Source of the DNA: Sediminibacterium sp.
GTDB taxonomy: Bacteria; Bacteroidota; Bacteroidia; Chitinophagales; Chitinophagaceae
Assembly (NCBI GenBank): GCA_965283715.1
Contig: CBDIPL010000004.1
Coordinates: forward strand, 199,780-263,779
Direction: 5' to 3'
DNA: 64,000 bases
A model generated the notes under the pieces. The model was given only the letters and a program-made list of their open reading frames with translations. It was not told where the DNA came from and did no database searches. The position numbers were made by a program, and so were the translations under genes. Below, in pieces: positions 36,738-53,260 of this stretch (its first letter is position 1; every line of letters begins with the position of its first letter).

Positions 36738-37616
36738 CTATTTTGATTCGCGCGAACGCAGTAATACTGAGAGATACATGTGTGCTATTTTGATTTTTAT
36801 TTGTACATCTGCATACTTGAAACAAAATCTAAAATATTTTCGGGCTTCTGTATAATTTTTATCTACAAACAAGTGTCTACTTCGCGTGTATTGTATAAGT
36901 GCTGTCAATTTATTCTGTTGTTTTACGGATAGCAGGTGAAAATATTTCTCCACAACTGATTCATATACATTGGACATGTCTTTTTGGGATATGCCGTTTT
37001 CATGCTGTAGATAATAACAAAGGTTTTGTGGAATATATTTAAACTGATCGGTGATAGCTGCAATTTTCAACCATGCATCAAAATCTTCCGCAGCTATAAC
37101 CCCTTTATCTTCATTAATTCCACCAATGCGTTCTAACAATGACTTACGAACTACTACAGAAGAATTGGCTATCGTATTACCTGCAATCAAAAGATCAATC
37201 AGTACAGGCTTTTGAAGCTTCCTGCTTTTAATCCCTTTTTTTGATCCAGATTCCCCGTCAACCAGAAAAAAATCGTGGTATATCAAATCAGTTGTCTCAC
37301 TGATTACCTGCGAACATTTTTCCAGTTTGCCTGGGACCCACCAATCATCTGCATCTAGAAAACAGATCCATTTACCTTGGGCAATAGCTAAGCCTCTGTT
37401 ACGGGGTTTTGCAGGACCACCATAATTGGTATCCCATTGATACGTTATTCTTGGATCTTTTATTGATTTAATGACATCTCCTGTATCATCAGTAGAGCCA
37501 TCATCCATTACCAGAATTTCAAAATCAGTAAATGTTTGTGACAGTACAGACTCAACAGCTTTTTTTACTTTACCTGACCTGTTATAGGTTGGAATGATGA
37601 CAGAGAATAGTGGCAT
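36738..37616 (-). CDS. Glycosyltransferase family 2
   Basis: SVIIPTYNR, DDGSTD, GGPAKPRN, FLDADD, EDFDAWL. Confidence 0.95.
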   Translation of the reverse strand: MPLFSVIIPTYNRSGKVKKAVESVLSQTFTDFEILVMDDGSTDDTGDVIKSIKDPRITYQWDTNYGGPAKPRNRGLAIAQGKWICFLDADDWWVPGKLEKCSQVISETTDLIYHDFFLVDGESGSKKGIKSRKLQKPVLIDLLIAGNTIANSSVVVRKSLLERIGGINEDKGVIAAEDFDAWLKIAAITDQFKYIPQNLCYYLQHENGISQKDMSNVYESVVEKYFHLLSVKQQNKLTALIQYTRSRHLFVDKNYTEARKYFRFCFKYADVQIKIKIAHMYLSVLLRSRESK

Positions 37617-38380
37617 TATACAATTTTGGTTGCAAAAAACATGGCTTTGCCTGTTACAGCTTTTTGTACAGACATTTCGTAGCCCATCGAATTAAACATA
37701 AACCTATAATCTGAAACCGGATAATAATGGTCACCTAAATCATGGTCCGTAGGAAATATTTTATGAAAGTCTGTTTCAAAACTTCCTTTTTTGATCAGAT
37801 TACGTAAAAAACCTTTTGCTTTTTTTAGAAATGTAAAATAATGTTCTCCTATCAATATGATGCTTCCCCCTGGTTTTAATATCCTGTCACATTCAACCAA
37901 AAGATGCAGTGGGCGGTCGGCATGATGGAATGCTTGGGAAAAAAAGATAACATCGAAAGAATTTTTTTCAAATTTAAGATCGTAAAAGCTTCCTATGTAC
38001 CGATGCAGCTTGTTTTCATCACCACCCAGCATTCTTATAGAGTGCTCATATAATTCAGCCAATCTGTGTTGTGATATCTCCACTGAGTGCACTTCTGCTA
38101 CTGCATCAATTTTAGAAAGCAGGCTTGATGTCCAGCCAATACCTGCAGCAAGATCGGCAATCTTCAAATTGCAACCGGGAAGTCCCTTTATAATCGCTTC
38201 TGCATCATAATACTCATCAAACAGACCGGATTTTTTAAGGTAGTTCAAACATCTGTCGTAGTCGCCATCAACGATCCACCATTCTTTCTTTTTCTCTGCC
38301 TCAAGATCGTTCCAATATTCTGCAGAATAAATGTTTTGTAATTGATCCTGGGTGAGCCAGTTCTGTACGGGTGTAAGCAT
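37616..38380 (-). CDS. Class I SAM-dependent methyltransferase
   Basis: ADLAAGIG, VEIS, SFDVIFFSQAFHH, RILKPGG. Confidence 0.88.
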   Translation of the reverse strand: MLTPVQNWLTQDQLQNIYSAEYWNDLEAEKKKEWWIVDGDYDRCLNYLKKSGLFDEYYDAEAIIKGLPGCNLKIADLAAGIGWTSSLLSKIDAVAEVHSVEISQHRLAELYEHSIRMLGGDENKLHRYIGSFYDLKFEKNSFDVIFFSQAFHHADRPLHLLVECDRILKPGGSIILIGEHYFTFLKKAKGFLRNLIKKGSFETDFHKIFPTDHDLGDHYYPVSDYRFMFNSMGYEMSVQKAVTGKAMFFATKIV

Positions 38381-38390: not shown

Positions 38391-40313
38391 TTATGTGTGA
38401 TTAAACTTCAAATCTTTAATGAAAGGAAAGCCATGTCTTCTAAAAAGACCTGCCCATTTGGATAAAGCAGGGTTCAATTCAAAAAAATCTTTTTTTGGTT
38501 TTACCTCAAATGGATATAAGGATAATTTTTCGCAAAGTTCATCAACCGAATGAATAAACTCCACATCATCGGTTCCAAACAAGGAATTAATATTCAGGTT
38601 ACCGGAAGCTCCTACGATGATTACAGGAATGCCATGATATACGGCTTCTAAAGAAACAGACGTTGAATTAGATGTGTATACGACATGTGAATTACCCCAC
38701 AATGTAGAAAGAGGCTGATAAACAATAGTATTAGGTATTGTAAAATTGGCCTTTTCTACCATATATTCTACCGGTATCAAAGGATGGGGTTTGATAATGA
38801 TCTGTGAGAATTTCTTTAATGCCCCTTTTTTCTCTGCGAGCGACAGAAGCCCGATCTGGATCTCTGTTTCTGTCTGAATAGATCCCGTAACAACTAACAG
38901 GTTGTAACCTGCCTGCGCATTTTTTTCAGATACACTTTCGATAGGCTGTAAAGATGCGATATACCGTAAAGCTTCGAATGTTTCTACCCTGCTTGCCTCC
39001 CAGCCCCCATTCACCAACATTTGCCTGGATTGATTGCCTGGTGCCGCAAGTAAATCAGGCACCAGCCTTCTTTCTTTGCCGCCTTCGATTTCCATTGCAT
39101 TGCCAGGAAAAACTTTTAAATTATATAAGGCACAATTGGCAGGTGTATGAACGGAGCCCACAAAAAAAGCCTGATGCAATTTGTTTCTGATGGTTAACAG
39201 GCATTGCTCCCATGGTTGGTTTTCCCATACGTAGATAATAAGGTTGGTTTGTGCAGGTAGTTTTTTTGACATTTCATTAAATGCCGACATCTGCATACTG
39301 TTATTGATAGCTGTATGGCCTACAAAAGTTTCATCCCAGTCGTTTTTTAACAGAGGGAAAAAATTCAGTTGAGAACCCGGGAATGAAAAGAACTCATGCG
39401 CTTTAGTAAGAAAATTTTTTTTATACAAGAGCTTACCATAAAAAAAAAGCCCCTTGCAAAAAGAGCGGATACCAATAAAATCTTCCAGAAACAAAAACCT
39501 ACTTCCCTTATAAGCAGCAGATGCATTTAAACGTGATTGGAAATGAACGCTCTCTTTGTAAGAAAGCTGACGCATATTTGAATACATCCATACCCAGTTT
39601 ACCGGAATTTTTTCCTGTTGTATCAGATCATGCAGAGAACCCCAGTAATTAGAATAAAATTCATCGTGATCTGCTTTTTTTAAATCAATACCGGGGAAAT
39701 AGGTAACTATGGTACAGGCTGCACTAGGATCCGGCTTAACATGATTAGAGAAGCGCAGACGTTTCATTACAATATGCACGAGGTACAGTAAAGCCTGAAA
39801 AATCAATGGCAATGACTGGTATACTTTGTCTATTCCTTGTAAAGCTGATTTGTTTTCGCTTTTTGTACGCGTCCATTTAAATGAATGCCTTTGTTGCCTG
39901 AGCCATTTACTTAATACCTGTGCAACTTTTTTATTGCTTCCTATGTATACAAGATGCCGGTAATTTCCACTGATAAATTTCTTTTCAATAACACGTATCC
40001 GCAACACATCGTAAACAGCTTTGGTTTTATAAGGAGATTTATCAGCAATAAGTGTTTGCCACCAATATGAGCCTCCATCTAATAACTCTGTGCACAGGTG
40101 TTCAGATAAGGTTGCACCATTAAATGAAGCAGTGGCCAGGTTTGCTGTCCAGTTAAGATATTCACTTCTCAGTTCCAATACGTCTTCTTCAACAATCTTC
40201 GGAATAGAAAATACACCCTGACTTTCTTCAAACGAATCCCATAGAAAGGTATCAACGCTATTGAGTGGAAGATGGCCGATATCTTCCACAACAGTTAAGG
40301 TCTTTGCGATCAT
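38391..40313 (-). CDS. LIC13510/TIGR04326-like surface carbohydrate biosynthesis protein; orphan with GT-B-like C-terminus
   Basis: SIPKIVEE...LRSEYLNW, SYWWQTLIADK, SNYWGSL, WENQPWE resemble that family (from memory). The C-terminus has IIKPHP and NSTSVSLEAVYHGIPV. Confidence 0.65.
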   Translation of the reverse strand: MIAKTLTVVEDIGHLPLNSVDTFLWDSFEESQGVFSIPKIVEEDVLELRSEYLNWTANLATASFNGATLSEHLCTELLDGGSYWWQTLIADKSPYKTKAVYDVLRIRVIEKKFISGNYRHLVYIGSNKKVAQVLSKWLRQQRHSFKWTRTKSENKSALQGIDKVYQSLPLIFQALLYLVHIVMKRLRFSNHVKPDPSAACTIVTYFPGIDLKKADHDEFYSNYWGSLHDLIQQEKIPVNWVWMYSNMRQLSYKESVHFQSRLNASAAYKGSRFLFLEDFIGIRSFCKGLFFYGKLLYKKNFLTKAHEFFSFPGSQLNFFPLLKNDWDETFVGHTAINNSMQMSAFNEMSKKLPAQTNLIIYVWENQPWEQCLLTIRNKLHQAFFVGSVHTPANCALYNLKVFPGNAMEIEGGKERRLVPDLLAAPGNQSRQMLVNGGWEASRVETFEALRYIASLQPIESVSEKNAQAGYNLLVVTGSIQTETEIQIGLLSLAEKKGALKKFSQIIIKPHPLIPVEYMVEKANFTIPNTIVYQPLSTLWGNSHVVYTSNSTSVSLEAVYHGIPVIIVGASGNLNINSLFGTDDVEFIHSVDELCEKLSLYPFEVKPKKDFFELNPALSKWAGLFRRHGFPFIKDLKFNHT

Positions 40314-40318
40314 TGATT

Positions 40319-41083
40319 TTATTTGCCGGTTCCCTCGTGAAGTTCTCTTATCATTTTTTCAGCTTCAATTAGGTCTTCTTCACAATCAACGCTTTTTACA
40401 GGCGCAGTGCATTCGATCATACGAACTTTCATCCCGTTTTCAACAAACCGCATCATATCTACTGACTCGATCTCTTCATAGTATGCGTTAGGTAATTCCA
40501 CAAATTTCTCAAGCGCGCTTGCCCACATAGGCATTACGCAGATCTCAATACGGCATTCAAATTTCTTATCACCAAGCCAGATAGCCGGCAATGCATTTCT
40601 TGAAAAATACATTGCGTTAGATTGCGTATCTATCACCACTTTAACCTCATTCTGATCTGCTTCAGATTCCGAATAGCTCATCCACTTGTAAAGGTTCACA
40701 CAAGAAACATCTGCATTTGCTTCCAGTTCGCTAATTGCCTTATCCAGCCATTCACCTGTTACAAGAGGCTCATCTCCTTGAAAGTTAACAACAATGTCCC
40801 ATTTCTTTCCGGTACCCTTATAAGCCTCATGTACGCGTTCAGTTCCCCTGCGGTGCGAGTCGCTGGTTAATACAACTTTAGCGCCGAAAGCTTCACAACG
40901 ATCCACTATTTCCTGGTTAGGTGTTGCTATCAGAATTTCATCAGCATATTTTGAATTACTTATATTTTCCCAAACCCACCGAAGCATTTCTTTCCCATAA
41001 ATCATGCGAAGCGGTTTATCAGGAAACCTGTACCCACCCATACGGGCCGGGATCACAACTAATACACTACGTCCGTTTATCAT
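40319..41083 (-). CDS. kdsB: CMP-ulosonate synthetase, KdsB-like (copy 2, divergent)
   Basis: IPARMGGYRFPDKPL, HRRGTER, NFQGDEP, VKVV, YFSR, ESVDMMR, SVDCEED. Confidence 0.8.
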   Translation of the reverse strand: MINGRSVLVVIPARMGGYRFPDKPLRMIYGKEMLRWVWENISNSKYADEILIATPNQEIVDRCEAFGAKVVLTSDSHRRGTERVHEAYKGTGKKWDIVVNFQGDEPLVTGEWLDKAISELEANADVSCVNLYKWMSYSESEADQNEVKVVIDTQSNAMYFSRNALPAIWLGDKKFECRIEICVMPMWASALEKFVELPNAYYEEIESVDMMRFVENGMKVRMIECTAPVKSVDCEEDLIEAEKMIRELHEGTGK

Positions 41084-41826
41084 ATTTTACTTAATATTTT
41101 TTCAACGCGTTTAAGATCTTCCAGTGTATCCACCGCCTTGGTATCAAAAGCGGTAGGAACCATTCTTACTTTCTTTCCATGTTCAAGAATCCGCATCATA
41201 TCAACAGATTCGGCCACCTCCAGTGGAGTTGGTGTAAGCTGAATATATTCAAGCAGAAAATCTCTTCTGAATGGAATAATACAAACCTGTTTATACATCG
41301 GGATATTATCCGTTTTTGTTGGTGTTGGAATAGGCTCCCTTGAAAAATACAATGCATCACTGTTCAGATCGCATACCACTTTGATGCAGTTGCGGTCTTC
41401 AAATTCTTCTACAGATTCTATTTTTCCAAGAAGATTGGTTACCTGTATCGATTCGTCTGTAAGCATGGGTTGTAATGCTTCATCGATCATGTCAGGATGT
41501 GTCATGGGTTCATCACCTTGTACCATTACAACAATATCGTATTTTGTATTGTTCAGGGCTTCAAGTTTTGCCAATGCTTCTGCACACCTGTCTGATGCAC
41601 GTTCGTGCGTATCGCTGGTCATCACCGCCGTTCCGCCTATTGATTCAATGTAATCGAAAATCTCCTGATCGCATGTTGCTACTGCGGTAAGGGTTAGTTT
41701 TGGTGACTGTGATACTCTCTCGTACACATGTCCAATCATAGGTTTTCCAAGTATTTGTGCCATCGGCTTTCCCGGGAAACGACTGCTGCCCATACGTGCG
41801 GGTATCAATGCAATAATGTTGGTCAT
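41080..41826 (-). CDS. kdsB: CMP-ulosonate synthetase, KdsB-like (copy 1)
   Basis: IPARMGSSRFPGKP, HERASDR, VQGDEP, IKVV, YFSREPIP, ESVDMMR, AVDTLED. Confidence 0.88.
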   Translation of the reverse strand: MTNIIALIPARMGSSRFPGKPMAQILGKPMIGHVYERVSQSPKLTLTAVATCDQEIFDYIESIGGTAVMTSDTHERASDRCAEALAKLEALNNTKYDIVVMVQGDEPMTHPDMIDEALQPMLTDESIQVTNLLGKIESVEEFEDRNCIKVVCDLNSDALYFSREPIPTPTKTDNIPMYKQVCIIPFRRDFLLEYIQLTPTPLEVAESVDMMRILEHGKKVRMVPTAFDTKAVDTLEDLKRVEKILSKI

Positions 41827-41837
41827 ACTAGATATAA

Positions 41838-42767
41838 TTAATGATTGTTTTTATGTTTAAGTGCCCATTCTGTAAATACGGGAAACCCCTTATCAAGGCT
41901 GGTGAATGTTTCCATTCCTAATATTTCTTTCAGTGATTGATTGTCTGCATAAATACCATTCTGGTCGCCGGGTGTAGAACCTTCTACAAAAAAACTTGCA
42001 CCGGGGATATTCTTGCATATTTTTTCCAGTAATCCTCCGATGGTTGTTCTTACACCTGTACCTACATTGAACACTTTATTTTTTGCTGATCGATAAGTAG
42101 CCGATCTGAACCAAGCTTCCACAACATCCTCTATATAAATAAAATCCCTGTAACGTTCGAGACTTCCTTTTACAAGTATTTTTCCTGAGTTCAATGCCTG
42201 GGCCAGGTAAATACTCACCATTCCCTGCCTTAGATTACTAAGGTCCTGCCCAGGTCCATATACATTAAACATACGGAGCGCAACAAAAGGTAGTTTATCC
42301 TGGTATACGCGAAGATATCCTTCGCTTGAAAATTTTCCTACACCATATACCGAAAGTGGTTTTGGAAAATGAGATTCATTCACAGGTTCATCCGGAACAT
42401 TTCCATAAACAGACATAGAGCTTGCATACACGATCCTGTCTGCTTTGATATCTATACCATATCTGATCAGGTTCAACGTGGAAACTACATTTTTTTCGAG
42501 ATCGGCAACCGGATCATCGTAACTGATCTCTCCTGATGACTGTCCTGCCAAATGAAGAATAGCCGAACAATCTCTCGGGAACTTTTCCATTGTGGCTGGC
42601 AGGCTGAGATCTTCTTTCAAAAACGTAATACCTTGCGGTACATTTTCAACTTTACCGGTTGAAAAATCATCCACACCTATTACTTCATAGCCTTCCGCAA
42701 GAAATCTTTCGGCAACATGTGAACCAATAAATCCACCTACGCCGGTAACCAATACTTTTTTTTTCAT
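41838..42767 (-). CDS. NAD-dependent epimerase/dehydratase
   Basis: VTGVGGFIG, HLAGQSSGE, SSMSVYG, YGVGK, RMFNVYGPGQ, RDFIY. Confidence 0.9.
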   Translation of the reverse strand: MKKKVLVTGVGGFIGSHVAERFLAEGYEVIGVDDFSTGKVENVPQGITFLKEDLSLPATMEKFPRDCSAILHLAGQSSGEISYDDPVADLEKNVVSTLNLIRYGIDIKADRIVYASSMSVYGNVPDEPVNESHFPKPLSVYGVGKFSSEGYLRVYQDKLPFVALRMFNVYGPGQDLSNLRQGMVSIYLAQALNSGKILVKGSLERYRDFIYIEDVVEAWFRSATYRSAKNKVFNVGTGVRTTIGGLLEKICKNIPGASFFVEGSTPGDQNGIYADNQSLKEILGMETFTSLDKGFPVFTEWALKHKNNH

Positions 42768-42802
42768 TTTTTATAATTTGTGATATTTCCTTTGCGCCAT
42801 GC

Positions 42803-43573
42803 TTAACTGATTTGCTTACGATCAAACGCAGCTGCATTCGATAAGAAAACAGAATCAATTGAATAGGCAAGAAAACGATAGCCTTCATCAATTCTTGATT
42901 TAAGTAATAGCGGATCAGGTGACACAACATGTACACCACCCGGTATCCCATATTTGCGGCATAAAATAAGAATGCGTTCCATTGCTGAAACAAATGCAGG
43001 AGCATCGAACTGTGCCGTTACACCCATTGATGCGGAAAGATCATAAGGCCCTACCAATATTGCATCCAATCCTTCTACCTGCAATATTTTATCCAGTTGA
43101 TCTACTGCTTTTATATTTTCAATCATAGCTACCAGTAGGGGAGCCTGTGCTTCTTCCTGGTATGCCTGGAAATATTTTCCAAAAAGATTGGCCCGTGAAA
43201 ACCCCACACCACGTGTACCGGCCGGAGGCCAGCAACAGGCATCTTTTACCATCTGTAATTCTTCTGCGCTTTCTACCATTGGAACAATTACTCCACCAGC
43301 GCCTGCGTCCAGTGCCTGTTTGCAATCCTTTATATGTCCCTGCGCCAAACGTACCAGTGGCAAGGTTCCCCCAAGTTCCAGCGCTCTGAACATATCTGGT
43401 AATTGATGCAAACTAAATGCACCATGTTCAAGGTCTATGGCAACCCAGTCATAACCTGCATCCCCCATGATCTCTGCTACAGAAGCGTTGGGTAGCTGCA
43501 TCCAGCTGCCTATGGTTGGTTTACCTCCTTTGAGTATTTCGCGGATTGATCTTATTTTTTCAAGGCGATTCAT
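42803..43573 (-). CDS. HpcH/HpaI family class II pyruvate aldolase
   Basis: GYDWVAIDLEH, LDAGAGGVIVPMV, GTRGVG, MIE, VGPYDLSASMG. Confidence 0.92.
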   Translation of the reverse strand: MNRLEKIRSIREILKGGKPTIGSWMQLPNASVAEIMGDAGYDWVAIDLEHGAFSLHQLPDMFRALELGGTLPLVRLAQGHIKDCKQALDAGAGGVIVPMVESAEELQMVKDACCWPPAGTRGVGFSRANLFGKYFQAYQEEAQAPLLVAMIENIKAVDQLDKILQVEGLDAILVGPYDLSASMGVTAQFDAPAFVSAMERILILCRKYGIPGGVHVVSPDPLLLKSRIDEGYRFLAYSIDSVFLSNAAAFDRKQIS

Positions 43574-44226
43574 AGTTCTGACATATTATCAACCGCGTAA
43601 CCGGCATAATTAGGAAATGAGTTTAGATTGGAGGTATGTTTACGTAAGAGGAACGGCACTTTGTTGGCAAGTGCTGCTTCATAATCCGCAATGGCGTCGC
43701 CGATCATTATGGCATCTTCTGCAGGAAGCTGCTGTTGGTGCAGCATTTCGGCAATGGCGTCTTTTTTTGTAGCGGGTGTTCCATACACTGCAAAAAAAAC
43801 AGAATCAAGGTCAAGCTCATGTAAGATACTTTCTAATTCATGCTGTGGCGTTGCAGAAATCACTACAAACAGTTGCCGGTGAATATTACTACGAAGGTAT
43901 TCTTCAGCGCCTGTAACCCATGGTGCTTTGATCACGCCATCAAAACTTAATGCACTGAATTGTTTATGCAGTTCATTGATCCGTTCAGGTGTAACCGTTT
44001 CATTGACCCATTGCAGGTAAATAGGAAACTTAATAAACCTCGACATTCCCCCGTTGGCTTCATGATGCTGTTTAACTTTATCTGCTATTTCTGAACCGTA
44101 TTGCTGAAACAATGCAACAAATGCTTTTGTTTTAACATCAACGGATTCCTTGATCACACCATCAAAATCCCAGAATACAAGCCTGGCTTTTTTAACAGCT
44201 TCTGCCGCAGTTACTGTCTTATCCAT
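43570..44226 (-). CDS. HAD-superfamily hydrolase (phosphatase)
   Basis: WDFDGVI (motif I), SATP (motif II), K, IGDAIAD (motif IV). Confidence 0.9.
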   Translation of the reverse strand: MDKTVTAAEAVKKARLVFWDFDGVIKESVDVKTKAFVALFQQYGSEIADKVKQHHEANGGMSRFIKFPIYLQWVNETVTPERINELHKQFSALSFDGVIKAPWVTGAEEYLRSNIHRQLFVVISATPQHELESILHELDLDSVFFAVYGTPATKKDAIAEMLHQQQLPAEDAIMIGDAIADYEAALANKVPFLLRKHTSNLNSFPNYAGYAVDNMSEL

Positions 44227-45059
44227 ATCTGGTTAAAGGTGTTTTCAAAACCTGATTCAGAGCTGTCGATTTCTATGGCGTGTCTTTTTTCTTTTAAGGT
44301 AAGTCCTGCGGCTGTAAGCAATGCCTTACATTGATCTGCCTGTTCTGTAAAATCATCATTTACTTCTATCAGTATACCCTTGATTTTAGCGAGAACACTA
44401 ACACCACCTTTCAAAATAAAATGTTCCAGTCCGTCCACATCCATTTTGATATATTCGGGAACAGGTAAAGATAAATGGTAGATGGCCTCTTCCATACTCA
44501 AACCGATCAACTGGTAATCGAATGTTTGTTTAATGGCCTGTCCATCCCATCCGAAGTCTTTTCCAAAAGTTGATAAAGCTCCACCCCATTCTGTACTGGT
44601 CATTCTCATTTGACTGATGCTTAAGCGATCGCTCAATGCAAGAGGAACTATGCAAATCCTATCGCTTAATTTATTCAGGTAAATATTTCGGGCGAGCAGC
44701 TCTAAGTTGAACACGGATGGTTCAAAGGCATATACCCTGCAGTTTCTTTTATGAGCCGCATACACAGAATACAAACCTATGTTAGCTCCAATATCCCAAA
44801 GAACAGCGCCTTCGGGTAAAGTATCAATCCACTCAAGCGTTTCGGGCTCTTTGGTGGAAAAACTTTTGATGCGCCATTTGCTTAATGTATTCGGTATTGC
44901 AAATTTAAACTTAAGTCCATTATGGCTAACTTCCGCTGAACGGTTCATTGAATAATTAATCACCTGCTCATAGAACTGTTTGCCTATAGCGGTAGGACCG
45001 AGTATAGATGCAAAGCGCGAGAAAAAACCCGAAATGAGCTTTTTTAATTTTTCTTTCAT
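44211..45059 (-). CDS. FkbM family methyltransferase
   Basis: KEPETLEWI, WDIGANIGLYS, AFEP, IKMDVDGLE. Confidence 0.92.
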   Translation of the reverse strand: MKEKLKKLISGFFSRFASILGPTAIGKQFYEQVINYSMNRSAEVSHNGLKFKFAIPNTLSKWRIKSFSTKEPETLEWIDTLPEGAVLWDIGANIGLYSVYAAHKRNCRVYAFEPSVFNLELLARNIYLNKLSDRICIVPLALSDRLSISQMRMTSTEWGGALSTFGKDFGWDGQAIKQTFDYQLIGLSMEEAIYHLSLPVPEYIKMDVDGLEHFILKGGVSVLAKIKGILIEVNDDFTEQADQCKALLTAAGLTLKEKRHAIEIDSSESGFENTFNQIWIRQ

Positions 45060-45943
45060 TTTGTTGAGTTGGAGGATTGGTAGTCATTAATTTGATTGAT
45101 AAGCTGTATAAGTCCCTGCCCTAAATCAACGTGCATAGGATGCACATATTTTCTGCCCAGTTTTGGCTGGTACGCGTATGGAGTTCTTATATAATGACCG
45201 GAGTCTTCTGAATTGATGAATTCAATCTCTTTTGAAAATCCGAGTATTTCAGCCAGCATTTTCATCAGATTAGAAAAACTCATCGGTTCATGGCCTGTTA
45301 ACACAATGCTTTCGTTTTTAAAATCTTCCCCTAAAGCAACCACGCTTGCTTTCGCAGCATCTTCTACATGAATATATTCCCGAATGGCATCGGGGCTAAC
45401 TTTTGAGATCTGTATAAATCCTTTTTGCAATGCATCTCTTACTATACGGTATAGTCCATTGCTTTCATCGGATCTTGGTCCAAATAAAGATCCATAACGC
45501 AGAATAGTATAATCAAGCCCGAAAGCGCGGGAGTATTCTTCAACATAATGTTCTGAAGCCTGTTTACTGCATCTGTAAAACCCGCCTTCCCTGCTGTAAA
45601 CATACACTGTGCTTGCATATACAAAACGTTTGATAGCATGTTTACGGCTCGCTTCCAGTGCCTGTACGGTTCCCAGTACGTTTATGCGTACTGTTTCAAC
45701 CGGTTTATCCAATGCATCATTGAGGTCGGCAAGTGCGGCGAAATGATAGACTACATCAGAACCCGCTATGGATTTTTCAAGTGTTGCCACATCAAGAAGG
45801 TCACCTACAATCATTTCCTGATCTGCACGTAACCAGGGAGAAGTTTTGCGGTCGAAGATACAGACCTTGTGTCCAGCCTCGCTTAATTGATCAGCCACAT
45901 GTGATCCTAGAAATCCACTGCCGCCGATAACGGTTACTCTCAT
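45056..45943 (-). CDS. NAD-dependent epimerase/dehydratase
   Basis: IGGSGFLG, HFAALAD, ASTVYV, YRCSK, RYGSLFG. Confidence 0.88.
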   Translation of the reverse strand: MRVTVIGGSGFLGSHVADQLSEAGHKVCIFDRKTSPWLRADQEMIVGDLLDVATLEKSIAGSDVVYHFAALADLNDALDKPVETVRINVLGTVQALEASRKHAIKRFVYASTVYVYSREGGFYRCSKQASEHYVEEYSRAFGLDYTILRYGSLFGPRSDESNGLYRIVRDALQKGFIQISKVSPDAIREYIHVEDAAKASVVALGEDFKNESIVLTGHEPMSFSNLMKMLAEILGFSKEIEFINSEDSGHYIRTPYAYQPKLGRKYVHPMHVDLGQGLIQLINQINDYQSSNSTK

Positions 45944-45957
45944 AATTTATTTTTCTT

Positions 45958-46656
45958 TTAAGATGCGTGGTTCATGGCATTTTCGGCAGAATGGTCCAGA
46001 AGCCATGTGCCATGTAAAGCCAGTTTAGCCGGTACGGATAAAAAATCATTTTGCCCATTGAATATTAATGCCAATGCCTTTCCTTTTGCAGGTCCCTGAC
46101 CAAAACAAAAAATCCTGCCGGCAGCACGTATAACAACAGGCGTGATTGTGAAACGTGAAAATGGTTTTTTAGTGCCAGTAGCAGGCATTACTTTTCTTTC
46201 TTTTTCAAGCAATATTTCGCTTTGCGGAAAAAGAGATGCAATATGTGCATCCTCACCAATACTAAGTAACAATATGTCTATTGTATCGGGTAATAAAGCC
46301 GCGTATCTTTTTGCCTCTTCCTCTTTATGAACTGCGTCTCCCTGAATGGGATATATTGTAATCTTTTCTGTGGGTTCATCGCTTAATAAAGATTCCATAA
46401 CCAGGCGATAATTACTTTCAGGATCACTAAGTGGCACGCAACGTTCATCACCAAAATAAAAATCGATTTTGTGAGATGATAAAAAATTGCGCCACTCGTT
46501 GTAAACGCACTGTGCGCCGCGCCCACCTGTTAACAGAATACTGCAGGAACCTTTTTCAGCACAAACATTTTCAACATACCGGTTCAATACACCGGCCGAT
46601 TCCACTGCCCAATGAGGATCTTCAAAACTTATTATCTCCGTCGTTTGATTACTCAT
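45958..46656 (-). CDS. 6-phosphogluconolactonase-like lactonase
   Basis: LTGGRG, YFGDERCVP, SNYRL, GEDAHIASLFP, RFTIT. Confidence 0.85.
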   Translation of the reverse strand: MSNQTTEIISFEDPHWAVESAGVLNRYVENVCAEKGSCSILLTGGRGAQCVYNEWRNFLSSHKIDFYFGDERCVPLSDPESNYRLVMESLLSDEPTEKITIYPIQGDAVHKEEEAKRYAALLPDTIDILLLSIGEDAHIASLFPQSEILLEKERKVMPATGTKKPFSRFTITPVVIRAAGRIFCFGQGPAKGKALALIFNGQNDFLSVPAKLALHGTWLLDHSAENAMNHAS

Positions 46657-47639
46657 TTACTCCTGCTTTGCTCTTCATATTCACTCTCAGGTACTTCCCC
46701 CAATAATGTTTCGCCTTTTATAAACCTGATGGCTTCTTCGGTGGCTTCTATTTCCATGCGCGTTCTGCAGTCAACAGACATGGAACCCATGTGCGCCGTT
46801 AAGATGCATTTCTCTATTTGCTGAAGTGGCCCTTCGTAGGGTTCTTTTTCAAAGACATCGATCGCTGCACCGCTCAGGTGGCCGCTTTCCAATACATCGA
46901 ACAGATCATTCTCATTTACAATGCCGCCGCGTGAAGTATTGATGATCATTGCATCGGGTTTCATTGATAATAAAACCTCTTTGTTGATCATATTCCTTGT
47001 CACTTTTGTAAGTGGCACATGAATGCTGATTACATCTGCCTGTGTAAATATTTCTTCTTTAGATACCCATTCAAGTTTCAGACCAGGAATCTGAAGATTT
47101 GGATCCGGATTAATATCATGTACCAATACCCTTTCCGGTGCGAAACCCAACAGATGCTGAATAACCCTGCTTCCTATACGGCCCGTTCCGATAATTCCTA
47201 CGGTTACTTTTGCAAGCCTTCTTCCAAAATAGCGGTGCCAGTTTCCATTGTGCATTTGCAAATTGGATACCTGTGCAGACCGCAGAAGTGTTAACATCAA
47301 ACCCATAGCCAGTTCGGCAACAGCTGCAGCCGGTGCATCGGAGGTATAGGATACTTTGATACCTTTTTGCCTTGCAGTTGTGAGGTCAACACTATCCAGG
47401 CCTATACCCACCCTTGAAATAAATTTTAGTTGATCGGCCTGATCAAGTACCAATGAATTGATCTCTTCTGTACCTGCGATCACAACATCAAAACCGGGAA
47501 TTAATTCCGCAAGTTGCGCTGCTGTAAGTTTTTTGTTATGCGGATTGATCACGTATTCGATGCCTGCCTGTTCTAATAACGTAATTGGCAGTGGATCTTT
47601 ATCAGCAAATGGAACGGTAGTGATTAAAGCACGGGGCAT
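46653..47639 (-). CDS. D-2-hydroxyacid dehydrogenase (phosphoglycerate dehydrogenase-like, no ACT domain)
   Basis: ATG 47639 gives MPRALIT, with SRVGIGLDSVD, GIIGTGRIG, HVPLT, INTSRGG, DVFEKEP, TAHMG. Confidence 0.9.
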   Translation of the reverse strand: MPRALITTVPFADKDPLPITLLEQAGIEYVINPHNKKLTAAQLAELIPGFDVVIAGTEEINSLVLDQADQLKFISRVGIGLDSVDLTTARQKGIKVSYTSDAPAAAVAELAMGLMLTLLRSAQVSNLQMHNGNWHRYFGRRLAKVTVGIIGTGRIGSRVIQHLLGFAPERVLVHDINPDPNLQIPGLKLEWVSKEEIFTQADVISIHVPLTKVTRNMINKEVLLSMKPDAMIINTSRGGIVNENDLFDVLESGHLSGAAIDVFEKEPYEGPLQQIEKCILTAHMGSMSVDCRTRMEIEATEEAIRFIKGETLLGEVPESEYEEQSRSK

Positions 47640-47670: not shown

Positions 47671-49191
47671 TTATTTTCGACGGATCTTCTGGTAAACGAG
47701 CACCAAGTCGGACCTTGTAAAGCCAATGATCCAAGGTTGCCAGTACAACATTGTAGCCGATATTACAACATAAAACAACCCAGCAATTCCCATCGCTATG
47801 ATAACGGGTAAATGAATAACGGAAACGATCGCAAACTTTGCCACCCAACCGGCAGCAAGCGCCAATAAAAGTGAGGCTATCTGGTAGGTCCAGTCAAATT
47901 TCCATTTAAACATTCTTGCCAATATCCAACCCTGCACATTTACAAATATTACCTGCATAAACACCATTTTATAGGCAAGTCCCAGTGACTTTAAACCCAG
48001 CCCGCCGAATAAGGCGTCAGCAGGTGCAAGCATAAAATAAGAAACCGCTATACTGGAGATCATAAAGATAATACCCTGTACTACCTGTATCCGCGATTTG
48101 CCTGTTGCATAAAACATAGTATTGCAGATCTGACCATTTGATTGATGTATGGGATACAGAAACATCAACATCATGGTAGTAGCACCTCCAAGATAGGCTG
48201 CCCCCAGTGTAAGCTGAATGATTTCAGGTGTCCATGGAAGCACGAAACCAGCAACCATTGCTCCTATAAAATAAAGACCACGTGATGTTTTATGATAAAG
48301 GCTTTTAACTCTGTGCAGGTCTTTGATATGGTATGCTTCGGCAATTTCTTTCCAGAAGATTCTTAATATGGAAGTTGTTGCCAACAGCGATATAGCAGCG
48401 AACTGATAGGCAACTGAGTAATAAGCCTGTTCCCTGGCGCCACCCCAGTTCTGCAGCATCCATCTGTCTGCAAAATCATGTGTGAATGAGATCCATACAT
48501 AAGGTATAAAAGGCAGGCAGTATATCCAGAATTCGCGGAAAAAAGAACTGGGCGTGTCCGGGTGTTGGTCACCTTCACTATTGTTTTCTTTATTATGCCA
48601 ATACATTTTGGCTGCATACCAACCGGCTATTGCCCATTCTGCCGCAGTAGCTATAAAAATTACGGGCAGCCCAAGTTTGCCAAACAGCCATAAACACACT
48701 ATGGCAATCAGATGAAGAAACACTACCACCGTGTTTAGGCGTTGTACTAAGAATGTTTGCCTATTTGCTTCTGCCATTTGCGAAGCGATCAACCATACCG
48801 AACCCTGCATAAAGGTTGCGATCAGAGCCAGCAAAACCAACCCCCTGCTTTCTCCTTTCCAAATCTCGGCAACCCAATTTTCAGGTATAATACAACCGAT
48901 GACCAAAACAGAAAGCAGCAGTTGAATACCCGTCCAATTCCAAAAGAACCGAACAAATTTACGGCTCCTGCTTCTTTGCGATAAGAAAGTAAAATAAGCA
49001 GTAACGGTACCCATATCCAGCAGCTGCCGGAAAGCTGCAAATGAAACCAGCAAAAACGACATACGTCCGAAGTCTGTTGGGCCTAACCACCGGGCTAATA
49101 AAACGCCTGTCAATAAACTTACCCCACTCCGAAGGATATTAGCGATTAGACTGGCTGCAATTCTTGCCTTAACTGTATTTCGTTCTTCCAT
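47671..49191 (-). CDS. wzx: Wzx flippase (polysaccharide biosynthesis transporter)
   Basis: About 12-14 TM segments, LARWLGPTDFG, DRWML, AYYSVA. Confidence 0.85.
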   Translation of the reverse strand: MEERNTVKARIAASLIANILRSGVSLLTGVLLARWLGPTDFGRMSFLLVSFAAFRQLLDMGTVTAYFTFLSQRSRSRKFVRFFWNWTGIQLLLSVLVIGCIIPENWVAEIWKGESRGLVLLALIATFMQGSVWLIASQMAEANRQTFLVQRLNTVVVFLHLIAIVCLWLFGKLGLPVIFIATAAEWAIAGWYAAKMYWHNKENNSEGDQHPDTPSSFFREFWIYCLPFIPYVWISFTHDFADRWMLQNWGGAREQAYYSVAYQFAAISLLATTSILRIFWKEIAEAYHIKDLHRVKSLYHKTSRGLYFIGAMVAGFVLPWTPEIIQLTLGAAYLGGATTMMLMFLYPIHQSNGQICNTMFYATGKSRIQVVQGIIFMISSIAVSYFMLAPADALFGGLGLKSLGLAYKMVFMQVIFVNVQGWILARMFKWKFDWTYQIASLLLALAAGWVAKFAIVSVIHLPVIIAMGIAGLFYVVISATMLYWQPWIIGFTRSDLVLVYQKIRRK

Positions 49192-49217: not shown

Positions 49218-50984
49218 TTATTCGCCATTCAAAATATGTTTCAATACGTTTATTGGATTTGAGATACTGCGCGAATAACGCTCACAGAAAGATCTGCGCG
49301 CTTCCTGTATATCTTGTTGATTCCACCATCCTTTTACATCATCGTATACTTCAGCCACTTTAGCTGCTGCAGCATGGGGTGTTTCATGAAAAATACCACA
49401 ATTTTTAAGTGATTCAAAATAAGGCAGCGCATCCTCCCTTAGTTCCCAGTGATCAGGATTCCAGAAAATAATAGTGGGAACATTTAAAGAAAGGGTTTCA
49501 AGAAAGGTGGTAGAATTATAAGTTGAAATAAACAAGCGCGATTTGCTGATCAAAGCCGTCATAGAAACAGCCCCGTTATCTAGTTTGATTTCAGGTAGCC
49601 GGTCCTGCCACCTTTGATTTTGTGATAATCCAAAGTCCTGCTTAAATAAACGAACCAATACATTCTCCTGCATTGGGTGTGGTATCGCCTCTACAAACTG
49701 GTATTGATCTTCGAAATAATTTAGGATTTGGGAAGACAAAGGCACTGCAAACAAGTGATAAGAATAACGCGGCAGGGCCATGGTAACCAACAGAATATTT
49801 CCCTGTGGATCCCAGGTTTGCGTTTTATTCATCACCACAAGATTGGCAAATGGTTTTACCACCGGGGTTTTAATGCTATCCCACCCCCAACTGATGTACT
49901 TGTTGGAGACTGCTTTCTGGTGAGCTTCTGTGAATCCAAATGCAACGGTACCATAGTTACCTCCATGCTGCGCTATTACAAGTTGAGACCCCTGTTCGGT
50001 TTTTCTGGCTGCCCAGGCTTTAAATACATCATCTAGGCTATCAGAATTTGCCGTAAACATCAACCGCGGATTAGAGGGCCATGGCAGTTGAGAGATTTTT
50101 AATTGCAGCGCCTCGTATCCTTCAAGATAAACCCTTGGTATGTGTTCGGGAATCATTCCGAACAAGATTTCTTCAAACCTGTTTGCCGGAGGTATTGTTC
50201 CGATAGAAAAAGTAGGCCTTGCATAAAGGGTATTTATTTTAGGCGGTTCCACCAATTCCCAGAATTTGGGCACCTGTCCCATCTGTAACTGTAATTGTAC
50301 TGCACTCTTTGCAGGAAGATAACTTGATATAAAAAAAGCTTCACGGGGTTTAACAAAAAAATTAAAAAGTCTACTTACCCCCTTCATGCCACTTTTCAAT
50401 ATTGCGGATAAAGATGTAGCAGTTTCGACCATTACATTGCCTGGCATTGTATAACTATTCTCCAATGCCGCTATGTGTATGTTAACACTGGTAAAACGTT
50501 TTAGTATTTCGTGAAAGATCCCTTCATTCCAGAAATCATCAACAAATAATTTTTGAAAATCTGCCATGTCGTTGGGCACAAGATCTTCCAGCGACGAGCC
50601 TAATACATAAGCATCTGATACCTGGTATTCTTTTATTGCTTTTTCAAGCATGCTCCATCGATCGAACAGCATCTGGACAAAATAGCCAAGCCATGGTCCC
50701 ACCAATATCCGCCAATACCTGGTGCTATATTTTGTGTTATGTATCGCATTTAATTTACCCGAGATTTCAACAAGTAATTTTTCATGAAGTTCAATAAGGT
50801 ATTGATAATCTGCATGGTATTTTTGCCTGTCATCCCAGTGATATTTTACAACCTCTGCATCCATCTGTAACCATCTTTCTTTTCTGGAATACAAACGGCA
50901 CCATTCCCCAAGAAACAAAACTGGTACTGAATTGTCGGGCCATGTTTGTTCAAAAGGAGATGTGATCAGGATCCTTTCTACCAT
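49218..50984 (-). CDS. LIC12162/TIGR04331-like putative transferase; orphan with GT-B-like C-terminus
   Basis: PVLFLGEWC, YHWDDR, RYWRILVGPWL, IAQHGGNYG, ISWGW, STYNSTTFLETL resemble that family (from memory). Confidence 0.75.
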   Translation of the reverse strand: MVERILITSPFEQTWPDNSVPVLFLGEWCRLYSRKERWLQMDAEVVKYHWDDRQKYHADYQYLIELHEKLLVEISGKLNAIHNTKYSTRYWRILVGPWLGYFVQMLFDRWSMLEKAIKEYQVSDAYVLGSSLEDLVPNDMADFQKLFVDDFWNEGIFHEILKRFTSVNIHIAALENSYTMPGNVMVETATSLSAILKSGMKGVSRLFNFFVKPREAFFISSYLPAKSAVQLQLQMGQVPKFWELVEPPKINTLYARPTFSIGTIPPANRFEEILFGMIPEHIPRVYLEGYEALQLKISQLPWPSNPRLMFTANSDSLDDVFKAWAARKTEQGSQLVIAQHGGNYGTVAFGFTEAHQKAVSNKYISWGWDSIKTPVVKPFANLVVMNKTQTWDPQGNILLVTMALPRYSYHLFAVPLSSQILNYFEDQYQFVEAIPHPMQENVLVRLFKQDFGLSQNQRWQDRLPEIKLDNGAVSMTALISKSRLFISTYNSTTFLETLSLNVPTIIFWNPDHWELREDALPYFESLKNCGIFHETPHAAAAKVAEVYDDVKGWWNQQDIQEARRSFCERYSRSISNPINVLKHILNGE

Positions 50985-51799
50985 GCTGTTCTTCCTCCAT
51001 CCATACTGATCACCGCACCATTCATATAGCTTGACGCATCACTCAGCAGAAAAAGCAGTGCCCCCTGGTATTCATCAGGTCTGGCCATACGACCCATGGG
51101 GATACGTGAACAAACCTCTTTTAAAAAAGTTTCATTTTGGTTATTTTCAACACCCCCTGGACAAAGTGCATTACAGCGAACGCCCTGTTTTGCCCAATAA
51201 GTGGCCACATATCTTGTGATGCCTATCAACCCGGTTTTAACAACAGAGTAGGTAATGGGTTTAACCGGCTGTTGCGATTCCTGTAGACCTTCGATATGGT
51301 ATAATCTTTGATCAGGTGCAATGATGCCGAGGTCTGAAGAAATATTTACAATACTGCCACCTTTACTGTTTTTTGAGATCTCGTATCCATAATATTTAAT
51401 ACAGAGAAAAGATCCTTTTAAGCCAACTGCCAGGTCGTTCTCCCATATATCGGAAGGAAAAAATTCAAGCCGTGAAAAATTTTTTTCTTCCGCGTTTTCA
51501 ATTTTAGGATTATTGGCCGCGTTGTTTACAAGACCGTCAATTTTTTTGAAATCGCGTATGATCTCTTCACAGTTTTGACGGATTGATTCTTCGTTGGTAA
51601 TGTTTACCAAATATCCTTTACAAGCAACTCCATATTTTTCCTGTAACGATGCTGCTTGTTCCGTTACTACCTGCAGGTTCAGGTCAAGTAATACCGGAAT
51701 GCCTCCTGCTTCAGCCACAATTTCTGCGTGTTTCCTTCCCAGCAAACCTGATGCACCTGTAATAACAATTACTTTGTCTTTAAGCGAAAAAATTTCCAT
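50978..51799 (-). CDS. Classical SDR oxidoreductase (PtmA/FlmA-like)
   Basis: ATG 51799; ITGASGLLG, VNNAANNP, NISS, YSVVK, NALCPGG, MDGG. Confidence 0.9.
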   Translation of the reverse strand: MEIFSLKDKVIVITGASGLLGRKHAEIVAEAGGIPVLLDLNLQVVTEQAASLQEKYGVACKGYLVNITNEESIRQNCEEIIRDFKKIDGLVNNAANNPKIENAEEKNFSRLEFFPSDIWENDLAVGLKGSFLCIKYYGYEISKNSKGGSIVNISSDLGIIAPDQRLYHIEGLQESQQPVKPITYSVVKTGLIGITRYVATYWAKQGVRCNALCPGGVENNQNETFLKEVCSRIPMGRMARPDEYQGALLFLLSDASSYMNGAVISMDGGRTAW

Positions 51800-51807
51800 A
51801 TAGCTTT

Positions 51808-52572: not shown

Positions 52573-52593
52573 AATACGATTGTTTAATAATGA

Positions 52594-53256
52594 TTACTTG
52601 GTTGCGTATCCTATCAGCATTAATTCCCTTGACCAACGAAGGAATTTATTTTGTGTTCTCACGGGTATAAACGGAGAAATAAGTGAACAAAATAAATTGA
52701 TGGCCGGATATCTCCACACAACAGGAAGCTGTCTGAAAATATAAACTTTAATATCGCTGAAATCACTCATCATATAGAGATCAGTCAATGCCACTTTTGT
52801 AAACGGTGTACGGTGTGTAAAATCGTCGAAATATATTTTATAATTAGATTCCCAATCCGGAACCAGGCAAAGTATTTTACCACCGGGTTTTAACACCCTT
52901 CTCGCTTCCTTCAGAAACTTATCAGGGTGCCAGAGATGTTCGAGTAATGATTTGTTATAAATAATATCAAAATGATTATCGGGGAAAGGCCATACATCAT
53001 CTTCAAGGTTCACTTCCTTTTGAATAGGAACTGTGGGACATTGTGTTCCGGCATGAGCAGATAGGTCTACTCCATAACAATCAAGTCCTAGTTTCTGAAA
53101 CTCAGCCAGAAACTCGCCGCGGCCACATCCAGGTTCCAAAAATTTTTGTCCTGCCTGCATGCCAAACTGGTGAAACAGGTAAGAGGCCAGTTTACCTGGA
53201 TACGTAGTTTGTGGGTGAGAATTGGTGTCATAAATGACCTTAAGATAATCTGCCAT
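52594..53256 (-). CDS. Class I SAM-dependent methyltransferase
   Basis: LEPGCGRGE, GVDLS, FDIIY, EHL, RVLKPGG. Confidence 0.92.
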   Translation of the reverse strand: MADYLKVIYDTNSHPQTTYPGKLASYLFHQFGMQAGQKFLEPGCGRGEFLAEFQKLGLDCYGVDLSAHAGTQCPTVPIQKEVNLEDDVWPFPDNHFDIIYNKSLLEHLWHPDKFLKEARRVLKPGGKILCLVPDWESNYKIYFDDFTHRTPFTKVALTDLYMMSDFSDIKVYIFRQLPVVWRYPAINLFCSLISPFIPVRTQNKFLRWSRELMLIGYATK

Positions 53257-53260
53257 GTTT

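Follow-up and report, generated by a model that had tools for sequence, protein, structure and literature searches.

Positions 38391-47639 on the minus strand of the DNA analysed here, a 64,000-nucleotide stretch of Sediminibacterium sp. contig CBDIPL010000004.1 (hereafter the window), form one mobile glycan cassette of ten genes. [quoted passage not shown] A preliminary description of the same DNA had proposed an aldolase route to a CMP-ulosonate that bypasses the synthase KdsA, with two KdsB-like cytidylyltransferases at its core. The central idea is supported, given an aldolase that is paired with a KdsB-type gene in 47 of 47 loci, a coupled phosphatase gene of the HAD family, a protein with a glycosyltransferase B (GT-B) fold and an HP motif, and the loss of H181 and Y185 from the conserved cytidylyltransferase. 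The assignment of both KdsB-like proteins to the core is not, and no support emerged for an aldehyde made jointly by the SDR, dehydrogenase, lactonase and HAD enzymes, for pyruvate in particular as the donor, or for a hept- or octulosonic/aric chain length.

Organization of the cassette

The nine genes of the preliminary description are all present within 40319-47639 on the minus strand. In the order in which they would be transcribed, they encode a D-2-hydroxyacid dehydrogenase resembling phosphoglycerate dehydrogenase (PGDH) (DH; 328 aa, 46653-47639, Pfam 2-Hacid_dh and 2-Hacid_dh_C), an accessory 6-phosphogluconolactonase-like protein (Pgl; 232 aa, 45958-46656, PF01182 and TIGR01198), an extended short-chain dehydrogenase/reductase (SDR) of the NmrA/GalE-like kind (SDR1; 295 aa, 45056-45943, PF01370), a FkbM-family methyltransferase that uses S-adenosylmethionine (SAM) (282 aa, 44211-45059, PF05050 and TIGR01444) and a HAD-IA phosphatase (218 aa, 43570-44226, PF13419). 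These are followed by an HpcH/HpaI class-II metal-dependent 2-oxoacid aldolase (256 aa, 42803-43573, PF03328), a second extended SDR that is GalE/TviC-like (SDR2; 309 aa, 41838-42767, PF01370), a conserved cytidylyltransferase resembling CMP-ulosonate synthetases (KdsB2; 248 aa, 41080-41826, PF02348) and a lineage-specific second paralog (KdsB1; 254 aa, 40319-41083, PF02348). The lower end of the unit as first drawn needed to be moved, because the unit also takes in the gene for a TIGR04326-family GT-B protein of 640 aa (38391-40313, minus strand), a candidate CMP-ulosonate transferase that begins only 5 nt downstream of KdsB1.

Intergenic gaps across the ten same-strand genes range from -16 to +35 nt, with 4-nt overlaps at four junctions, one of which joins the HAD gene to the start of the aldolase gene. 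Promoter-like and terminator-like sites within the cassette are not enriched relative to shuffled sequence. On the strength of this tight packing, and of the lack of enrichment for such sites, the ten genes look like a single operon. The aldolase, the HAD phosphatase, both SDRs, DH and both cytidylyltransferases all have intact catalytic motifs. For DH we place the start at the ATG at 47639, which gives 328 aa, in line with the 327-333 aa of homologs; an alternative TTG start, which would yield 357 aa from an open reading frame (ORF) reaching 47726 and overlapping the Wzx stop codon, was rejected. A class-I SAM methyltransferase gene directly downstream of the TIGR04326 gene (37616-38380, minus strand, Methyltransf_11) is possibly part of the cassette, and its homologs (46-51% identity) adjoin the module in L006, L014, L042, L061 and L089.

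The minus strand from 19.5 to 64 kb of the window is a single long glycan locus. The remainder of the window carries capsule or exopolysaccharide machinery and sugar-nucleotide genes (WcaJ, Wza, Wzz, three Wzi-like proteins, Wzx, GT2, GT4 and WecG), and the setting of the cassette appears to be a capsule or O-antigen locus. The earlier observation that no kdsA, kdsD or kdsC partner lies in the window was borne out by Pfam and NCBIfam scans of almost all ORFs of at least 120 aa, which found no KdsA (DAHP_synth_1), no SIS-type KdsD and no KdsC in the 64 kb. Likewise, no KdsA, KdsD/KpsF or KdsC was present among the genes called in four related contigs that were looked up.

Recurrence across bacterial phyla

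Relatives of the cassette were gathered by aldolase homology, which provided five genome loci, four contig look-ups and 80 metagenome loci from a pool of at least 572 confirmed relatives in JGI metagenomes, and synteny was mapped by tblastn with all window proteins against the related loci. Frequencies are reported after removal of duplicate contigs and only for loci with enough flanking sequence; the aldolase is present by construction. The genome loci include metagenome-assembled genomes (MAGs) of Paraglaciecola, Bdellovibrio and Bacteriovoracaceae. Members of the aldolase clade are 70-76% identical to the window protein and come from MAGs labelled Proteobacteria, Bacteroidia, Anaerolineales, Nitrospinae and Nitrosomonadales.

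Throughout the five genome and 80 metagenome loci, the genes share one strand and a fixed order: DH, (Pgl), SDR1, (FkbM), HAD, HpcH aldolase, (Methyltransf_23 and SDR2), KdsB2, (KdsB1) and TIGR04326, where parentheses mark genes that are not constant. The start of a KdsB-type gene lies within 3.5 kb of the aldolase in every one of 47 non-redundant loci from several phyla. The HAD gene occurs within 5 kb upstream of the aldolase in 31 of 33 loci and directly upstream in 54 of 60, and DH is found within the same distance in 29 of 33 loci and anywhere in the locus in 27 of 28. SDR1 (28/33), FkbM (21/33) and Pgl (12/33) are progressively less frequent, and the TIGR04326 protein follows KdsB2 in 27 of 37 loci. 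Minimal cassettes consist of DH, aldolase and KdsB2 (L006 and L089) or of DH, HAD, aldolase, KdsB2 and TIGR04326 (L066, L069 and L070).

In 17 of 47 loci, SDR2 and a Methyltransf_23 gene together separate the aldolase from KdsB2. In the window the Methyltransf_23 gene is displaced (59958-60809, minus strand, PF13489), and its product is 29-37% identical to the methyltransferase that lies between the aldolase and SDR2 in approximately two dozen loci, such as L002, L003 and L008. A hexapeptide transferase gene stands between the aldolase and Methyltransf_23 in a few loci only.

In every case the related loci that we inspected were glycan loci, with genes for Wzx, GT2, Rml and NeuB proteins. The 10 kb upstream of the cassette contain NeuB genes in 12 of 25 loci and a gene of the LIC12162 family in 13 of 25, the latter often between the NeuB module and the cassette. 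The window has the same arrangement, with a LIC12162-family (TIGR04331) GT-B transferase gene at 49218-50984 (minus strand, TIGR04331 score 516.9) and, between this gene and DH, a Wzx-type flippase gene at 47671-49191 (minus strand, PF01943). Wzx occupies the same position in L023, L030, L048, L049, L054 and L060.

Because the genes are syntenic in dozens of unrelated contigs, we judge from this comparison that their grouping is far beyond chance and that the cassette is real and mobile. A search of a plasmid collection returned one unrelated aldolase (41% identity) and a search of E. coli genomes returned no match, so these searches tied the cassette to no organism whose polysaccharide structure has been solved. 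Two loci carry additional gene pairs of a similar kind. In L021, a divergent aldolase (34% identical) and a KdsB-like gene (41%) lie upstream of a normal DH-SDR1-HAD-HpcH series on the same contig, and in L005 an aldolase of 44% identity is paired with a different CTP_transf_3 gene and a DH. The pairing of aldolase and cytidylyltransferase may therefore exist in more than one clade.

The conserved cytidylyltransferase

Both cytidylyltransferases match PF02348 strongly (E = 2e-49 for KdsB2 and 3e-41 for KdsB1), and each exceeds the cutoff of a subfamily model (KdsB2, NF009905, 307 versus 255; KdsB1, NF003952, 232.7 versus 193). However, neither reaches the 155.2 cutoff of the kdsB equivalog model TIGR00466, where KdsB2 scores 153.2 and KdsB1 scores 135.4. 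The best PDB match of KdsB2 is E. coli KpsU (1GQ9, E = 8e-47), and its counterparts in related loci are 63-90% identical to it. Among 56 sequences of the KdsB2 clade, R10, R15, K19, the QGDEP motif, E198, R204 and D225 are all invariant. The CTP_transf_3 catalytic residues (R10, R15, K19, D98 and D225) are likewise invariant when four sequences of the KdsB1 clade are added to these 56.

The sugar site tells a different story from the catalytic residues. The H-x-G-x-Y motif (H181 to Y185 in E. coli KdsB numbering) reads Q-V-C-I-I in 54 of the 54 KdsB2-clade sequences that cover it, such that the substitutions H181Q and Y185I are invariant in the clade, and KdsB1 has E-I-C-V-M, with E and M at these two positions. 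In E. coli KdsB, Y185 and Q98 form hydrogen bonds with the C5 hydroxyl of Kdo, and 5-deoxy-Kdo is not a substrate; kpsU is noted in the same paper (PMC12199768). Further invariant changes in the KdsB2 clade occur where KpsU and H. influenzae KdsB agree (KpsU numbering): Q31G, D51C, S75R, G76A, N94M, S156E, Y160T, H172Q, G174C, Y176I, A177P, Y178F, E201D and Q202M. Approximately half of these substitutions (positions 156-202) fall in the Kdo-binding C-terminal domain, following the published assignment of the sugar-binding domain (PMC3149649).

Because Y185 is a ligand of the Kdo C5 hydroxyl, these alignments indicate that the pocket of KdsB2 is altered where the sugar ring is read, and KdsB2 is probably not a plain CMP-Kdo synthetase. 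The hydrophobic I-P-F patch, along with the extra arginine at S75, would suit a sugar that is O-methylated or otherwise altered, or one that is more negatively charged.

KdsB1 is only 37% identical to KdsB2, and its orthologs (82-91% identity) occur only in L010, L013 and L027. The preliminary description had given both paralogs a place in the pathway, whereas only KdsB2 proves to be widely conserved. The window and these three loci also share a subtype of the TIGR04326 protein that is 40-65% identical to the window protein, compared with approximately 25% elsewhere. Since loci with KdsB1 thus have their own transferase subtype, the sequences suggest that CMP-donor and transferase diverged together in this sub-lineage.

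Candidate transferases with a GT-B fold

The protein encoded after KdsB1 scores 404.6 against a TIGR04326 cutoff of 250, has no Pfam match and finds no PDB entry by sequence or profile search. Its AlphaFold2 (AF2) model (pLDDT 89.3, pTM 0.88) has GT-B proteins as the top Foldseek matches (E = 5e-8 to 4e-6), including UDP-GlcNAc 2-epimerases, VldE and MshA, and we conclude from the model that the protein is built on the GT-B two-Rossmann fold. The sequence K508-x-H510-P511, located where a strand of the C-terminal domain ends, is invariant in 26 TIGR04326 homologs and in the divergent subfamily of L001, L002 and L008. Other invariant motifs are SNSTS (548-552) in the loop after HP, ENQxWE (364-369) and GxxH (386-389). 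The HP motif of bacterial sialyltransferases binds the phosphate and carboxylate of CMP-Neu5Ac (PMC2169525), and an HP motif is common to beta-Kdo transferases (PMC10148158). Given the predicted GT-B fold together with the HP motif, the TIGR04326 protein fits the role of a candidate CMP-ulosonate transferase.

The LIC12162-family protein (49218-50984) also models as a GT-B glycosyltransferase (AF2 pLDDT 86.6), with Foldseek matches to MurG, WaaG and SPY, and no PDB match was found for it by sequence or profile search. This family has invariant QHGG and N-x-T-T-x-x-E motifs, lacks a conserved HP motif and is widespread (1688 matches at E <= 1e-20, including Riflebacteria, Chlorobium and Margulisbacteria). 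The notion that the TIGR04326 and LIC12162 proteins are paralogs was rejected, as they have no detectable mutual sequence similarity. The current family names are 'surface carbohydrate biosynthesis protein' for TIGR04326 and 'LIC12162 family transferase' for TIGR04331.

The aldolase and its accompanying enzymes

The aldolase matches PF03328 (E = 3e-32, 112 bits) and keeps the equivalents of HpaI residues H45, R70, E149 and D175 in an alignment to HpaI (4B5S) and YfaU (2VWS); these residues are invariant in A4. Its scores are far under the equivalog cutoffs of the family (154 versus 369 for TIGR02311, 127 versus 441 for NF007521, 120 versus 393 for NF007849 and 115 versus 407 for TIGR03239). 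By its sequence it is a class-II HpcH/HpaI member of a distinct and highly conserved clade that falls outside the HpaI, RhmA and GarL equivalogs, although JGI and NCBI label the members of this clade as 2-dehydro-3-deoxyglucarate aldolase or HpcH aldolase. It has its fold and catalytic residues in common with HpaI, YfaU/RhmA, GarL and the enzyme of PDB entry 6R62, and their chemistry is also likely to be common to it, in which the enolate of a 2-oxoacid adds to an aldehyde to give a 4-hydroxy-2-oxoacid, that is, a 3-deoxy- or 3-hydroxy-2-ulosonic acid. Entry 6R62 and related 'hydroxyketoacid aldolase' entries in the PDB represent enzymes of this family that use hydroxypyruvate as the donor. 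The known members are catabolic enzymes or biocatalysts, whereas the cassette clade sits in glycan-biosynthesis operons beside a cytidylyltransferase.

Among the accompanying enzymes, the HAD protein has the nucleophile motif DFDGV. DH has P. horikoshii PGDH as its best PDB match (1WWK, E = 5e-50), and the NAD motif and catalytic Arg/Glu/His triad are visible in its sequence, but it scores 220 bits against the 454 cutoff of the PGDH equivalog TIGR01327. In Pgl the motifs GDER and GEDAHIASLFP are present, and the score for the 6-phosphogluconolactonase model TIGR01198 is marginally above the cutoff (127.7 versus 124.45). SDR1 carries the motifs GGSGFLG and YRCSK and has UDP-hexose 4-epimerases as its best PDB matches, and SDR2 carries GVGGFIG and YGVGK. 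Azf, a glucose-6-phosphate dehydrogenase of the extended-SDR type, is matched weakly by both SDRs (E = 1e-6 to 1e-10), with scores far under the cutoff.

A proposed route to a CMP-ulosonate

In the pathway that we favour, the class-II HpcH aldolase would join the enolate of a 2-oxoacid to an aldehyde and would replace the KdsA or NeuB synthases that depend on phosphoenolpyruvate (PEP). The donor might be pyruvate, or it might be hydroxypyruvate made from 3-phosphoglycerate by DH and dephosphorylation. The HAD enzyme would strip phosphate from the donor precursor or from the aldol product, as do KdsC and NANP. FkbM, joined in other loci by Methyltransf_23, would O-methylate the sugar, and SDR1 and SDR2 would epimerise or reduce it. 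KdsB2 would then form the CMP-sugar from cytidine triphosphate, with KdsB1 probably activating a variant in this lineage only, and the TIGR04326 GT-B protein would move the sugar onto a growing polysaccharide of the Wzx/Wzy type. What we infer here is which way the aldolase runs, which donor and aldehyde it takes, how long the chain is, in what order tailoring proceeds and what DH, Pgl and the SDRs do.

The most economical reading of DH and HAD is that they supply hydroxypyruvate, by converting 3-phosphoglycerate to 3-phosphohydroxypyruvate and then to hydroxypyruvate. With this donor the product would be a 3-hydroxy ulosonic acid, similar to Ko, rather than a 3-deoxy compound. We do not single out pyruvate as the donor because a PGDH-like DH and a HAD phosphatase would equally give hydroxypyruvate. 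A bolder version can be offered only tentatively, and we regard it as possible but doubtful. Here the cassette would make a Ko-like 3-hydroxy- or 3-O-methyl-2-ulosonic acid de novo, a so far undescribed class of bacterial surface sugar, from hydroxypyruvate supplied by DH and HAD and a cellular aldehyde, with the aldolase, the remodelled KdsB and a new HP-motif GT-B enzyme. The cassette would then be widespread among environmental bacteria and would contribute to the serovar-specific antigens of Leptospira.

Several observations weigh against the proposed route. HpcH aldolases are mostly known from catabolism, and their reactions are reversible. If pyruvate were the donor, the near-universal DH would be without an obvious job, and if DH acted on the aldol product, the C2 keto group required by a KdsB-type enzyme would be lost. 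DH is the least explained part of the cassette. In addition, KdsB2 falls short of the kdsB equivalog cutoff by just 2 bits, and its nearest relative, KpsU, is a true CMP-Kdo synthetase dependent on housekeeping KdsA. The HP motif is short, and neither the D/E-D/E-G motif of sialyltransferases nor the QXXXD motif of beta-Kdo transferases was recognised in the TIGR04326 protein, whose ENQxWE and GxxH motifs match neither consensus. Finally, we know of no polysaccharide with such a sugar from any organism that bears the cassette.

Alternative explanations

Perhaps the most serious competitor, which we nevertheless consider unlikely, divides the cassette between two jobs. KdsB2 and KdsB1 would be KpsU-like CMP-Kdo synthetases drawing on housekeeping KdsD, KdsA and KdsC, and the TIGR04326 protein would be a Kdo transferase. 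Separately, the aldolase, HAD, DH and FkbM enzymes would make a non-glycosidic 3-deoxy-2-O-methyl-aldonic acid that decorates the adjacent nonulosonic acid (NulO), starting from pyruvate and glyceraldehyde-3-phosphate and proceeding by dephosphorylation, reduction of the 2-keto group and 2-O-methylation. This scheme gives a natural role to each of aldolase, phosphatase, 2-oxoacid reductase and O-methyltransferase, and it is in keeping with the NeuB genes found close upstream in 12 of 25 loci and with KpsU as the best PDB match of KdsB2. It also has a parallel in E. coli group 2 capsule loci, where kpsU duplicates the cytidylyltransferase step only.

An aldonic acid of this type exists in nature. 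The flagellins of Treponema denticola carry a nonulosonic acid with a 2-methoxy-4,5,6-trihydroxyhexanoyl group (bioRxiv 10.64898/2026.01.31.703064), which is a 3-deoxy-2-O-methyl-hexonic acid, precisely the product to be expected if an aldolase, a phosphatase, a 2-oxoacid reductase and an O-methyltransferase acted together. However, that group is an amide-linked acyl chain and needs neither a cytidylyltransferase nor a GT-B enzyme, whereas the conserved module is without any amide- or ester-forming enzyme (ATP-grasp, acyl-AMP ligase, acyltransferase or carrier protein). Moreover, FkbM is absent from a third of loci and KdsB2 is never absent; in many loci the aldolase gene directly adjoins KdsB2, and the two stay paired even where NeuB is missing from the surrounding 10 kb (for example L009). 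The invariant loss of H181 and of the C5-hydroxyl ligand Y185 throughout the KdsB2 clade also argues against a supply of ordinary CMP-Kdo, and a separate sub-module nearby, seen in L006 and the P0066 locus, appears to provide the N-acyl chemistry of the NulO. The idea that the cassette supplies the adjacent NulO with an N-acyl side chain was downgraded because a ligase is lacking and KdsB2 and the GT-B protein are always present.

A second competing account, which strikes us as distinctly improbable, is oxidative. SDR1 would be a sugar-phosphate 1-dehydrogenase, Pgl the lactonase and DH the enzyme that oxidises C2, so that a hexose 6-phosphate would become a 2-keto-6-phospho-aldonate (a hex-2-ulosonic acid) to be passed to HAD and then KdsB2. 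The aldolase would only reset the stereochemistry at C3 and C4, by retro-aldol cleavage and aldol addition by way of hydroxypyruvate and glyceraldehyde-3-phosphate, or would provide a second entry to this intermediate. The DH-Pgl-SDR1 adjacency does recur, Pgl is above the 6-phosphogluconolactonase equivalog-domain cutoff, both SDRs match Azf, and the DH family includes reductases of 2-ketogluconate or its 6-phosphate (PDB 9M0T, 'probable 2-ketogluconate reductase'). Yet only 12 of 33 loci have Pgl, the minimal cassettes lack SDR1 and the Azf matches are weak and generic, whereas the aldolase is extremely conserved and, by construction, present throughout. To our knowledge, an epimerising role for an HpcH aldolase is without precedent.

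The last account, that catabolic or housekeeping genes came together by chance in a polysaccharide locus, can point to the catabolic names in JGI and NCBI annotation, but it has been effectively refuted by the comparative evidence (a KdsB-type gene in each of 47 loci, one gene order shared by several phyla, a setting that is always a glycan locus, translationally coupled genes and scores far under the catabolic equivalog cutoffs) and we give it almost no credence.

Neighbouring biosynthetic modules

A non-canonical NeuB module lies upstream of the cassette on the minus strand (50978-59928). It comprises a protein with CBS and GHMP (HddA-like) kinase domains (58564-59928), a fusion of NeuB and a xylose-isomerase-like TIM barrel (56664-58550), a second AP_endonuc_2 protein (55817-56680), a PseF-like cytidylyltransferase (55086-55820) and a class-III aminotransferase (53691-55082), as well as a glyoxalase-fold protein, a methyltransferase and two classical SDRs, one of which is weakly PtmA-like. 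No PseB/C/H/G, LegB/C/H/G or NeuC genes are present between 50978 and 59928, and parts of the module recur in L034, L049, L068 and L075. This module may be a second uncharacterised ulosonic-acid pathway. The possibility that KdsB2 serves the NeuB product was rejected, because the NulO module has its own PseF-like enzyme and does not need KdsB2.

Beside the cassette in L006 (6797-9969) and in the P0066 locus is the sub-module mentioned above, which consists of a MaoC-dehydratase/SDR fusion, a protein of approximately 573 aa that matches HAD faintly and is possibly FkbH-like, and a protein of 74-80 aa that may be a carrier protein. The sub-module possibly produces a hydroxyacyl or glyceryl N-acyl group with which a neighbouring amino sugar or NulO is decorated.

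Several other elements of the window deserve mention. An AsnB-like amidotransferase (29860-31749), a HisH-like protein (28038-28652) and a HisF-like protein (27252-28034) are encoded together at 27252-31749, and we take this set to resemble the WbuX/Y/Z-type genes for acetamidino sugars; its homologs are near the cassette in L004, L027 and L069. Inside the biosynthetic locus there is a heparinase II/III-like protein (22415-24094), and beside it a WecB-type 2-epimerase (24010-25101) and a 707-aa fusion of a zinc alcohol dehydrogenase domain with a GFO/IDH/MocA oxidoreductase (25108-27231). The three Wzi-like (Caps_assemb_Wzi) outer-membrane proteins of this one locus are divergent (6164-7834, 12248-13936 and 13933-15519).

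Relation to known pathways and significance

The cassette shares its end logic with the Kdo pathway (KdsD, KdsA, KdsC and KdsB, with KpsF and KpsU), in which dephosphorylation precedes formation of a CMP-ketoside by a CTP_transf_3 enzyme and use by a dedicated glycosyltransferase. KdsB2 is clearly homologous to KpsU and KdsB and retains the catalytic residues R10, K19, D98 and D225. Unlike the Kdo pathway, neither the cassette nor the window has a PEP-dependent Kdo8P synthase, a SIS-type isomerase or a KdsC-type HAD-IIIA phosphatase. Instead there are a class-II HpcH aldolase and a HAD-IA enzyme, along with extra methyltransferases, two SDRs and a PGDH-like DH, and H181 and Y185 have been lost.

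The sialic and nonulosonic acid pathways (NeuB/NANS, NANP and NeuA/CMAS) follow the same scheme of synthase, HAD-type phosphatase, CMP-activation and HP-motif GT-B transferase, and the cassette often adjoins a NeuB module. The vertebrate phosphatase NANP is a HAD_2-type enzyme as well. The cassette differs in having a pyruvate-type aldolase and a cytidylyltransferase that is KdsB-like rather than NeuA- or PseF-like, and its TIGR04326 protein matches no sialyltransferase model of the Pfam or CAZy type. Thus, the cassette works like the Kdo and sialic acid pathways but falls outside both as they are defined, because it has no PEP-dependent synthase, has lost Kdo-site residues and scores under the equivalog cutoff.

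The preliminary description knew of no characterised pathway with this gene set, and our literature search agrees, having found annotation lists only, with most subscription journals lying outside its reach. One such list is in a preprint on Leptospira interrogans serovar Hardjo, which reports an HpcH aldolase, a 6-phosphogluconolactonase, KdsB, NeuB and methyltransferases together upstream of rfb and assigns no pathway to them (10.1101/771931). This rfb-adjacent region resembles the cassette in its gene annotations, and the two GT-B families are named after Leptospira locus tags.

What would the proposed route mean if it is true? In every characterised CMP-ulosonic acid known to us (Kdo, Kdn, Neu, Leg, Pse and their relatives), the skeleton comes from a PEP-dependent KdsA or NeuB synthase. 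If a pyruvate-type class-II aldolase built the skeleton instead, the same problem would have been solved a second time and independently, and the HpcH family would gain an anabolic role. The orphan families TIGR04326 and TIGR04331/LIC12162 gain a functional proposal as GT-B transferases, and the cassette offers a compact set of candidate enzymes for the chemoenzymatic synthesis of Kdo analogues. Given at least 572 aldolase relatives in JGI data, a distribution over several phyla and the appearance of similar genes in lists for the serovar-determining rfb region of Leptospira, an undescribed acidic and probably O-methylated sugar may be frequent on bacterial surfaces, and such a sugar could be misassigned in standard surveys of sialic acids and Kdo.

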